From Escherichia coli (GTDB taxonomy: Bacteria > Pseudomonadota > Gammaproteobacteria > Enterobacterales > Enterobacteriaceae): a stretch of 64,000 bases of DNA. The stretch lies in assembly GCF_013315695.1 (NCBI RefSeq), contig NZ_CP054353.1; one strand, written 5' to 3'. Shown here one piece after another: positions 55,274 to 57,956 of this stretch (positions within the stretch are counted from its first letter, which is position 1; every line of letters begins with the position of its first letter). The notes under the pieces were generated by a model. It had not been told where the DNA came from. It saw only the letters and a program-made list of their open reading frames with translations, and searched no databases. Made by a program: the position numbers and the translations under genes.

Positions 55274-55479
55274 TGACCAAAAACCTCTTTGCGTCACATT
55301 TTTACAACAATTATGGCAGAGAAGAATAATGCCATTGGAATGAAGAGAGTAACGAACGGCTAAACCGAATGACGAAAAATTCTGGAAAACAGCACGCAAT
55401 TTCGTCAAGTGATTATTTTCGTCCCTAAGGAAACCTCATAGGATGCCTGCGGGTGCCTGAGACTTTCTGTTTTCAGGCT

Positions 55480-55538
55480 AACCGGGAATCAGAAAGACGA
55501 AGGCCCCGACCGATATTTCTATCAACCGAGGCCAACGA

Positions 55539-55550
<12 letters not shown>
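55480..55550 (-). ncRNA. sokB: sokB antisense RNA (approximate extent); promoter -35 TTGCCG / 17 bp / -10 TATGAT on minus strand at about 55557..55585
   Basis: Near-consensus sigma-70 promoter reading antisense into mokB start region, as in hok/sok loci. Confidence 0.45.
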
Positions 55551-55746
<196 letters not shown>

Positions 55747-55809: not shown

Positions 55810-55983
55810 TTTACACTTCAGTTAGTACATGTTTTTTTCGATGCACTAATAGAACCATCATTACAGACAAATTTGCCGCCTGCCGTACAGTGTGAGATTC
55901 CCCCTTTCGAACCAGAACAGGGTTTGCGCCCGGCATCGGCATAAAAGGAAACAAGCGTTCCCATAACCAAGATAAGTGCCAGT
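55810..55983 (-). CDS. ydcA: Small secreted Cys-rich protein
   Basis: 57 aa MKKLALILVMGTLVSFYADAGRKPCSGSKGG... Confidence 0.75.
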
Positions 55984-56161
55984 TTTTTCATATAACCTCC
56001 ATGGTTTATCGAATCTTATGTTCGATTTGAACGTTATACGCTGGTTTATTTTGATACCGTTGATGAGATCAAAGATCGGGTGAATTGATTAAAGATAAGC
56101 CAGATGGACGTATAGACAAGGATTATGGTTTTATTTGTCATACAAATAAATATAATAGGCG

Positions 56162-56226
56162 CTTCCGATGTAGGCCCGTATTCTTCGCCTGTACCACGGG
56201 TCGGTTTTAGTACAGGCGTTTTCTTT
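56162..56226 (+). ncRNA. rydC: RydC-like Hfq-dependent sRNA
   Basis: cttccgatgtaggcccgtattcttcgcctgtaccacgggtcggttttagtacaggcgttttcttt: 5' seed then hairpin gcctgtac/gtacaggc plus U-run; in the ydcA-cybB gap. Confidence 0.6.
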
Positions 56227-56235
56227 AAATATCCT

Positions 56236-56766
56236 TCAGGAACGTTTACGCGGCATCATGCGTAGAAGTGTGTTGTCCTTCCAGAAATAGTGGTGTGCCA
56301 GTGCAGCCGCAGCGTGCAACCCGATGACAAAATATCCCAGATTCGCCAGCGTTTCATGCCACGACTTTAAGCTATCAACCCGTTCGAAATTGGCCTCTGA
56401 AGCGTAAGGCATCGTCATACCAAACGCAAACCACGGGTTGCCCCGGTTATACATCATCACCAAACCAATCACCGGCAGCGCAATAAACAGGAGATAAATC
56501 ACCAAATGGCCCAAATGCGCCAGTCCCGTCATCATCGGTTTTGGCTTAGGTATAATCGGCGGGGTTGGGTATTTCAGCCTTAACAAAAGACGAACCACCA
56601 TCAGTACGAGAATTGAGATGCCACAGGAAACATGAATCATGTTGATGAGGGGCCGATCGCTACGTGGGAAGAAACCACGAAACTCCATTGCGCAATACGC
56701 TGCGATAACCAGCAAAAAGACCAGCCAGTGAATGCTGATTTGTAACCTTGAGTATTTATTTTCCAT
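56236..56766 (-). CDS. cybB: Cytochrome b561
   Basis: Start MENKYSRLQISIHWLVFLLV inside track ORF; 176 aa. Confidence 0.9.
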   Translation of the reverse strand: MENKYSRLQISIHWLVFLLVIAAYCAMEFRGFFPRSDRPLINMIHVSCGISILVLMVVRLLLRLKYPTPPIIPKPKPMMTGLAHLGHLVIYLLFIALPVIGLVMMYNRGNPWFAFGMTMPYASEANFERVDSLKSWHETLANLGYFVIGLHAAAALAHHYFWKDNTLLRMMPRKRS

Positions 56767-56954
56767 AACATTTCCTGCTTTAAAACAATTTGCCGTTAAC
56801 ATAACGGGCTTTTCTCAAAATTTCATTAAATATTGTTCACCCGTTTTCAGTACGTTACGTTTCACGGCAAGAATGTAGATTGCCCATCCCGCCATCCTGG
56901 TCTAAGCCTGGAAAGGATCCATTTTCATCCGAACGTTCCTGACAGGAGAAGACC

Positions 56955-57956
56955 ATGAGTAAAGTTGGTATTAACGGTTTTGGTCGTATCGGTCGACTGG
57001 TGTTGCGTCGATTACTTGAAGTCAAAAGCAACATAGACATTGTCGCTATTAATGATCTCACTTCCCCAAAAATTCTCGCCTACCTGCTGAAACATGATTC
57101 AAACTACGGACCGTTCCCCTGGAGCGTTGATTTTACGGAAGATTCACTTATCGTTGATGGGAAAAGTATCGCGGTTTACGCCGAAAAAGAGGCTAAAAAT
57201 ATTCCGTGGAAAGCGAAAGGCGCAGAAATCATTGTCGAATGTACTGGCTTTTATACCTCCGCCGAGAAATCGCAGGCGCATCTCGATGCTGGCGCGAAGA
57301 AGGTGTTGATTTCCGCCCCTGCCGGTGAAATGAAAACTATCGTTTATAACGTCAATGACGACACTCTGGATGGCAACGATACCATTGTTTCCGTGGCGTC
57401 ATGCACCACTAACTGTCTTGCACCGATGGCCAAAGCCTTGCACGACAGTTTCGGAATAGAAGTCGGCACGATGACGACCATTCATGCCTATACCGGCACT
57501 CAGTCACTGGTGGATGGTCCGCGAGGTAAAGATCTACGCGCTTCACGTGCAGCGGCAGAAAATATCATTCCCCACACTACAGGTGCGGCAAAAGCCATTG
57601 GTCTGGTGATCCCGGAACTGAGCGGCAAACTGAAAGGTCATGCGCAACGCGTGCCGGTGAAAACAGGTTCGGTCACTGAGCTGGTGTCCATTCTCGGAAA
57701 AAAAGTGACTGCCGAAGAGGTGAATAACGCACTTAAACAAGCAACCACCAATAACGAGTCATTTGGTTATACCGATGAAGAAATAGTCTCTTCCGATATC
57801 ATTGGCAGCCATTTCGGTTCGGTGTTTGATGCCACGCAAACGGAAATTACCGCCGTGGGCGATTTACAACTGGTGAAAACGGTCGCCTGGTACGATAACG
57901 AATATGGCTTCGTCACACAGCTCATTCGCACCCTCGAAAAATTCGCTAAACTCTGA
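56955..57956 (+). CDS. gapC: Glyceraldehyde-3-phosphate dehydrogenase C, intact
   Basis: 333 aa, NAD-binding [10 protein letters not shown] and catalytic SCTTNCLAP motifs, uninterrupted. Confidence 0.9.

Follow-up and report, generated by a model that had tools for sequence, protein, structure and literature searches.

A non-K-12 allele of the small RNA gene rydC in Escherichia coli, with a probable YieP operator abutting its -10 box

RydC ties membrane stress signals to membrane cyclopropane fatty acid content and acid resistance, and the founding paper on cfa is reportedly that of Frohlich et al. 2013. RydC is a 64-nt RNA that folds as a pseudoknot of two helices, S I and S II, and so leaves a conserved 5' seed exposed (PMC4337610; PMC6755755). 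Two conserved UU steps of the RNA touch the rim of Hfq, whose proximal pore accommodates the U-rich 3' tail (PMC4337610; PMC6755755); the RNA that was crystallised with Hfq is the Salmonella one (PMC4337610). Integrity of the pseudoknot is required for the stability of RydC, and mutation of G37 and G39 destabilises the RNA in vivo (PMC4337610). The dependence on Hfq is described together with the targets cfa and yejABEF (PMC6755755; PMC4337610). RydC shields the cfa mRNA from RNase E and opposes Rho (PMC6755755; PMC11340327). RNase E cleaves the cfa mRNA between -100 and -99, and the pairing of RydC covers this site (PMC6755755). The weaker targets, which are repressed, are yejABEF, csgD, trpE and pheA (PMC6755755; PMC3985669). 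In the control of RydC, FnrS acts upstream and OmrB is an antagonist (PMC11340327).

The rydC promoter is described as a sigma-70 promoter with a perfect -10 element, no obvious -35 element and no known factor site (PMC11340327). YieP, a GntR/FadR-type regulator, represses rydC 20-fold in E. coli, and in Northern blots of K-12 the RNA is visible mainly in the yieP deletion mutant (PMC11340327). All of the regulation was measured in K-12, and this 2024 paper does not define the YieP site at rydC (PMC11340327). A ChIP-exo study has rydC and ydcA among its YieP candidates (PMC7642389).

The window analysed here is a stretch of E. coli DNA of 64,000 nucleotides. Its element between ydcA and cybB is almost certainly rydC of a non-K-12 E. 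coli strain, encoding RydC, a 64-nt trans-acting small RNA that depends on Hfq according to the literature. The gene and its neighbours are as follows.

55818..55991, minus strand: ydcA, the divergent upstream neighbour (ORF list and annotation)
56162..56225, plus strand: rydC (RydC small RNA), matched by the full Rfam model RF00505 and identical to K-12 b4597 at 63/64 positions
56236..56802, minus strand: cybB (cytochrome b561 / superoxide oxidase), the convergent downstream neighbour (ORF list, annotation of K-12 and of the isolate AF3)

The sequence of rydC at 56162-56225 is CTTCCGATGTAGGCCCGTATTCTTCGCCTGTACCACGGGTCGGTTTTAGTACAGGCGTTTTCTT. In a search with all Rfam families, the RF00505 (RydC) covariance model matched on the plus strand from end to end (model 1-64/64) and reached 90.5 bits, where the gathering score is 48. 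The E-value was 3.5e-17 in a 14-kb search and 1.6e-16 in the whole window, in which only three Rfam matches were found, RydC among them. The match is far beyond chance. According to the direct alignment with K-12 b4597, 63 of the 64 bases are identical. A sequence-only reading of the window had named the element as RydC-like and pointed to a very similar K-12 sequence, and both statements are borne out by these two results. The Hfq dependence and the regulation of cfa and yejABEF that it also put forward agree with the literature (PMC6755755; PMC4337610). The 3' end is at 56225 by Rfam, and at 56226 if the 65-nt K-12 annotation is followed.

In the K-12 MG1655 annotation, rydC (b4597) occupies 1491442-1491506 on the minus strand and is flanked by cybB (+) and ydcA (+). 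The order trg, hokB/sokB, ydcA, rydC, cybB, gapC, aldA is common to the window and K-12, and the position between ydcA and cybB given by the sequence-only reading is correct. The window has cybB (-)/rydC (+) and K-12 has cybB (+)/rydC (-), convergent in both cases; the two maps are therefore reverse complements of each other, and rydC has a relative orientation consistent with that in K-12. The K-12-type start of cybB would fall at 56766. The 501 bp around rydC are 100% identical to those of the human bloodstream isolate AF3 (NZ_OZ547117.1), and 5410 of the 5426 complete E. coli genomes carry the 64-nt rydC sequence, each in a single copy. As far as can be judged from the sequence, nothing argues against the identification.

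The gene is already known, and the window copy is a non-K-12 allele. In every non-K-12 RefSeq genome listed, the rydC match bears no feature ('none'); the curated MG1655 record annotates rydC. Since the automatic RefSeq annotation omits the RNA in the listed non-K-12 genomes, the present call supplies a missing gene label, and its value goes little past correct annotation. Five of the about 5410 matches to the rydC region are on plasmid-labelled records, which would not be expected of a core chromosomal locus and might reflect mislabelled replicons, fragments of the chromosome or large integrations.

Some other features of the window and of nearby loci were observed. The hokB/sokB type I toxin-antitoxin locus is at 55451-55746, as in K-12. 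At this locus and at the far end of the window the following features are found.

864-922, minus strand: SECIS_3 (RF01989) selenocysteine insertion element, Rfam 84.3 bits (gathering score 63)
55451-55602, plus strand: sok (RF01794), Rfam 109.4 bits
55539-55706, plus strand: mokB-like ORF of 55 aa, overlapping the sok match at the hokB/sokB locus
55597-55746, plus strand: HokB ORF of 49 aa, overlapping the sok match at the hokB/sokB locus

From the K-12 map position, the SECIS_3 element at 864-922 presumably lies within the formate dehydrogenase-N gene fdnG. The E. whittamii locus (L010) has two tandem sok matches near rydC (1135-1286 and 1632-1783, 113.7 bits each), and the hok/sok module appears duplicated in this species. 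The gapC gene at 56955-57956 (+) is an intact ORF for a glyceraldehyde-3-phosphate dehydrogenase of 333 aa, named 'gap' in the AF3 annotation; in K-12 it is the pseudogene b4493.

The sequence-only reading had described a unit of about 64 nt at 56162-56226 with a single-stranded 5' end, an internal hairpin and a U-run. All of these are in the sequence, and 56226 is the end of the K-12 annotation. The hairpin arms form a perfect 9-nt inverted repeat, CGCCTGTAC (56186-56194) and GTACAGGCG (56210-56218), 15 nt apart, and the TTTTCTTT run comes after the 3' arm. The hairpin stands as an inverted repeat, but its description had to be refined: it corresponds to helix S II of the pseudoknot, and the second helix (nt 12-18/35-41) had gone unmentioned. 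The elements of the fold are listed below, where L013 and L014 are two diverged copies from metagenomes.

56173..56179, plus strand: 5' strand of helix S I, nt 12-18, forming seven standard pairs with nt 35-41; a helix of the Rfam model, with 96.4% of alignment cells paired
56184..56185, plus strand: U23/U24 step in loop 1, in the sequence; an Hfq rim contact according to the crystal structure (PMC4337610)
56186..56194, plus strand: 5' strand of helix S II, nt 25-33, which doubles as the terminator stem; inverted repeat, 100% of cells paired, double-sided changes in L013/L014
56196..56202, plus strand: 3' strand of helix S I, nt 35-41, with G37 and G39 present
56207..56208, plus strand: U46/U47 step in loop 2, in the sequence; the second Hfq rim contact (PMC4337610)
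56210..56218, plus strand: 3' strand of helix S II, nt 49-57, forming nine pairs with nt 25-33
56219..56226, plus strand: U-rich 3' tail UUUUCUUU, the terminator tail; the site for the Hfq proximal face (PMC4337610)

As the helices S I and S II interleave, RydC is an H-type pseudoknot. In the Rfam consensus structure nt 1-10 are unpaired; positions 11 and 42, a pair of the Rfam model, are A and G in both the window and K-12 and hence do not pair there. The tail reads UUUUCUU in RNA letters. The window RNA shows every published feature of RydC: a free 5' seed, the two helices, the UU steps and the tail. The predicted Hfq-binding determinants are all present at the expected positions, and Hfq binding itself is taken from the literature. 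The nested minimum-free-energy fold of the 64 nt was not better than those of shuffled sequences (z = -0.98), and its structure was unlike the known one. This fold is uninformative for RydC because the algorithm cannot form a pseudoknot. The terminator scan gave a short alternative hairpin at 56187-56201 and not S II, since the loop of S II is 15 nt and the limit of the scan is 8.

Related sequences were collected by two scans. The cross-species scan covered one genome per species and gave six loci, all from the genus Escherichia; with its loop spacing fixed at 3 nt, the pattern was too strict to reach other genera. The metagenome scan with a looser pattern returned three loci. Two of them (L013 and L014) are diverged RydC copies of 66 nt, with 73.2 and 83.1 bits against RF00505, above the threshold. 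They are probably from a Salmonella- or Citrobacter-like genus, and L014 likewise keeps the RNA convergent with a cybB homologue. The other Escherichia copies of RydC score 87.9-91.1 bits. The third metagenome locus (L015) had no Rfam hit and was dropped, its match to the pattern being due to chance.

The covariation alignment contained ten sequences, seven of them distinct. Of the pair cells of S I and S II, 98.2% hold standard pairs; shifting the 3' partners by 1-3 columns lowers this share to 26-46%. In S II, both members of two pairs are replaced, U-A by C-G and A-U by G-C. A third double-sided pair, 33-49 (C33-G49 to U-A), was seen by eye in the alignment, where it is split by a gap column. 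In S I the variation is limited to the one-sided A/G13 change. Because only two lineages are represented, Escherichia and one other genus, the covariation amounts to roughly one evolutionary event. Within this small sample, the pairing in the alignment supports both predicted helices, S I and S II.

The part of the RNA that would contact the target is the seed.

56162..56173, plus strand: 5' seed, nt 1-12 (CUUCCGAUGUAG), of which nt 3-12 pair with the cfa leader

The seed (CUUCCGAUGU...) is invariant in 10 of the 10 aligned sequences, from two or more genera. The K-12 cfa leader from -108 to -99 is CUACGUCGGA. RNAduplex places nt 3-12 of RydC on cfa -108..-99 with 10 bp including one G.U pair, at -16.6 kcal/mol, and the duplex spans GG/AUUAU, where the slash is the cleavage point. 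This duplex was matched or beaten by 16 of 3000 shuffled seeds and by 6 of 2000 shuffled leaders. The AF3 cfa leader has two differences from that of K-12, both far upstream of the RydC site, which is itself unchanged. A search of the K-12 cfa leader for the reverse complement of the seed found no copy, either exact or with one mismatch; the exact-complement search missed the site because it contains a G.U pair and starts at nt 3 of the seed. Within the most conserved part of the RNA, nt 7-12 (56168-56173) read AUGUAG, a start codon followed by a stop codon, which is probably meaningless.

Upstream of the RNA start, two elements are adjacent to each other.

56130..56150, either strand: perfect palindrome TTTATTTGT-CAT-ACAAATAAA, candidate YieP operator; a 9+9 inverted repeat, 100% complementary, which abuts the -10 box
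56151..56156, plus strand: -10 hexamer TATAAT, positions -11 to -6 relative to the RNA start; unchanged in every aligned locus

The promoter scan at rydC found no two-hexamer promoter and no recognisable -35 element, and its empty result is consistent with the absent -35. The promoter sequence thereby agrees with the published description (PMC11340327). The minus strand of 56133-56147 reads ATTTGTATGACAAAT and agrees at 15 of 15 positions with the YieP motif atTTGTaTGAcaAAT of the ChIP-exo study (PMC7642389). It is the only match to this motif with 0 mismatches in the 64 kb. The block from about -33 to -6 is almost invariant across the genus and the other-genus loci, and the sequence further upstream is not conserved. 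The 15-mer core of the motif is invariant in the other-genus loci L013 and L014. The palindrome is probably an operator bound by YieP, with its core 56133-56147 at -29 to -15, the exact placement being our inference. As the site spans -29 to -15, a bound YieP dimer would block RNA polymerase. This placement also fits the listing of rydC and ydcA among the YieP candidates of the ChIP-exo study (PMC7642389). A concrete candidate operator for YieP at rydC can thus now be proposed. An initial description of the YieP-rydC link as unreported was toned down, since that study already lists rydC and ydcA as candidates, without giving the site in its accessible text (PMC7642389).

In K-12 MG1655 the left half-site is TTAT, with a G>A change at a high-information position of the YieP-motif core (4022-4036 of the K-12 locus L001), whereas the window has the consensus TTGT. 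Over the 52 nt from -40 to +12, 3945 complete genomes are identical to the window and 1236 to K-12. The consensus YieP palindrome of the window and the G>A variant of K-12 raise the possibility of a strain difference in the control of rydC. It is conceivable, though rather unlikely, that the strains with the perfect consensus hold rydC under firmer repression than K-12 does, or lift the repression at another threshold. The mildly new points are limited to where the probable YieP operator lies relative to the -10 box, how it is conserved across genera, and the variant form in K-12.

The window RNA differs from that of K-12 at one position.

56174, plus strand: nt 13, G instead of the K-12 A; the sole difference in the RNA according to the alignment with K-12 rydC

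The change A13>G turns the S I pair 13-40 from A-U into G.U. One may consider that the copy is thereby decayed or altered, its pseudoknot weakened or its choice of targets shifted relative to K-12 RydC. Nucleotide 13 is in helix S I and adjoins the seed, and RydC stability needs an intact pseudoknot (PMC4337610). The calculated energy of S I is -9.9 kcal/mol with G13 and -10.5 kcal/mol with A13, so that the helix is weaker by 0.6 kcal/mol, and a possible 11th pair with U-109 of cfa, which the K-12 A13 allele permits, is lost (-16.6 against -17.2 kcal/mol). The latter difference is trivial, and nt 13 is within S I anyway. However, the G.U retains the 13-40 pair, and all other positions of the RNA, the promoter and the operator are intact. 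The Rfam score is on a par with those of the other Escherichia copies (87.9-91.1 bits). The exact 64-nt allele of the window is carried by 1241 of the 5410 rydC-bearing complete E. coli genomes, and G13 is likewise present in E. albertii, E. whittamii and one further Escherichia lineage among the loci of the cross-species scan. The occurrence in other species indicates an old or recurrent polymorphism and not damage, and the genome count together with E. albertii and E. whittamii suggests that it is old and tolerated. An altered copy is very improbable, and we infer that the G13 allele of rydC is functionally neutral; it might bring a small change in RNA stability or in target pairing. Co-variation of the G13 allele (1241 genomes) with a minority variant of the cfa leader (1112 genomes) was also considered and rejected, because the leader variants are about 18-22 nt upstream of the pairing site and because the pairing site is identical in AF3, the genome that matches the window.

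Two further explanations deny that the element is a small RNA gene. The mechanical ORF list contains a 46-aa ORF (56125-56265, +) and a 41-aa ORF (56085-56210, +), both spanning rydC, from which a small-protein gene instead of a non-coding RNA might be read. Both ORFs begin upstream of the -10 box and of the RNA start, and are therefore outside the transcript, and the sole AUG in the transcript (nt 7-9) directly precedes UAG. The two separate 1-nt insertions in the L013 and L014 RNAs would shift the frame of a protein, and the changes between the lineages are compensatory in the RNA helices and not codon-like. A small protein has next to no probability and is excluded for practical purposes. 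The statement of the sequence-only reading that there is no ORF thus holds for the transcript, in which AUG is followed by UAG; the region itself is spanned by the mechanical ORFs of 41 and 46 aa, with their upstream starts. The hairpin and U-run could also be a mere terminator or a cis element of a neighbouring gene: the S II stem followed by UUUUCUUU resembles an intrinsic terminator, and the minus strand folds as well, into an 11-bp hairpin of -17.5 kcal/mol (z = -2.35), with the end of cybB 10 nt away. But no upstream gene on the plus strand reads into rydC, since ydcA is divergent, and the minus-strand hairpin is followed by GAAGAAUAC without a U-run, so that it would be a poor terminator for cybB. 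The element also has a conserved TATAAT and operator block of its own, and its 5' seed does not vary across genera. In K-12 the element is annotated as a non-coding RNA, and Northern blots detect RydC (PMC11340327). We regard a terminator or cis element as scarcely credible.

The identity of rydC, its synteny and orientation, the elements of the fold, the promoter and operator sequences and, in the same genome, the match between the seed and cfa were observed in this analysis. The parts played by Hfq, by protection from RNase E and by repression through YieP would be those described in the literature. Transcription of rydC would start at 56162 from the sigma-70 promoter with a perfect -10 and without a -35, and YieP would keep this promoter nearly silent, most likely via the palindrome that abuts the -10 box. 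The RNA would fold as an H-type pseudoknot of S I and S II, in which nt 1-11 stay single-stranded. The proximal face of Hfq would hold the U-rich tail, and its rim the two UU steps. The seed would then pair with the long, sigma-70-dependent isoform of the cfa mRNA at -108 to -99, where the pairing would mask the RNase E site -100/-99 and oppose Rho termination. The expected outcome is a rise in cyclopropane fatty acid synthase and in cyclopropanated membrane lipid.

In comparison with known systems, RydC of K-12 MG1655 shares with the window copy the position between ydcA and cybB, the convergence with cybB, the -10 box, the seed, both helices of the pseudoknot, the UU steps and the tail. The copies L013 and L014 share with it the 5' 17 nt, the core of S I, the UU steps, the tail, the promoter block and the cybB neighbour. 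They differ in their length of 66 nt and their two 1-nt loop insertions, in the inner three pairs of S II, which are altered on both sides from UAC/GUA to CGU/ACG, and in the pair 11-42, which is A-U in these copies and A/G in the window RydC. ArrS also activates cfa; its site in the long leader overlaps the RydC site and guards the same RNase E site (PMC6755755). Unlike RydC, ArrS has an unrelated sequence and locus (antisense to the gadE leader) and no pseudoknot, and it is acid-induced via sigma-S and GadE.
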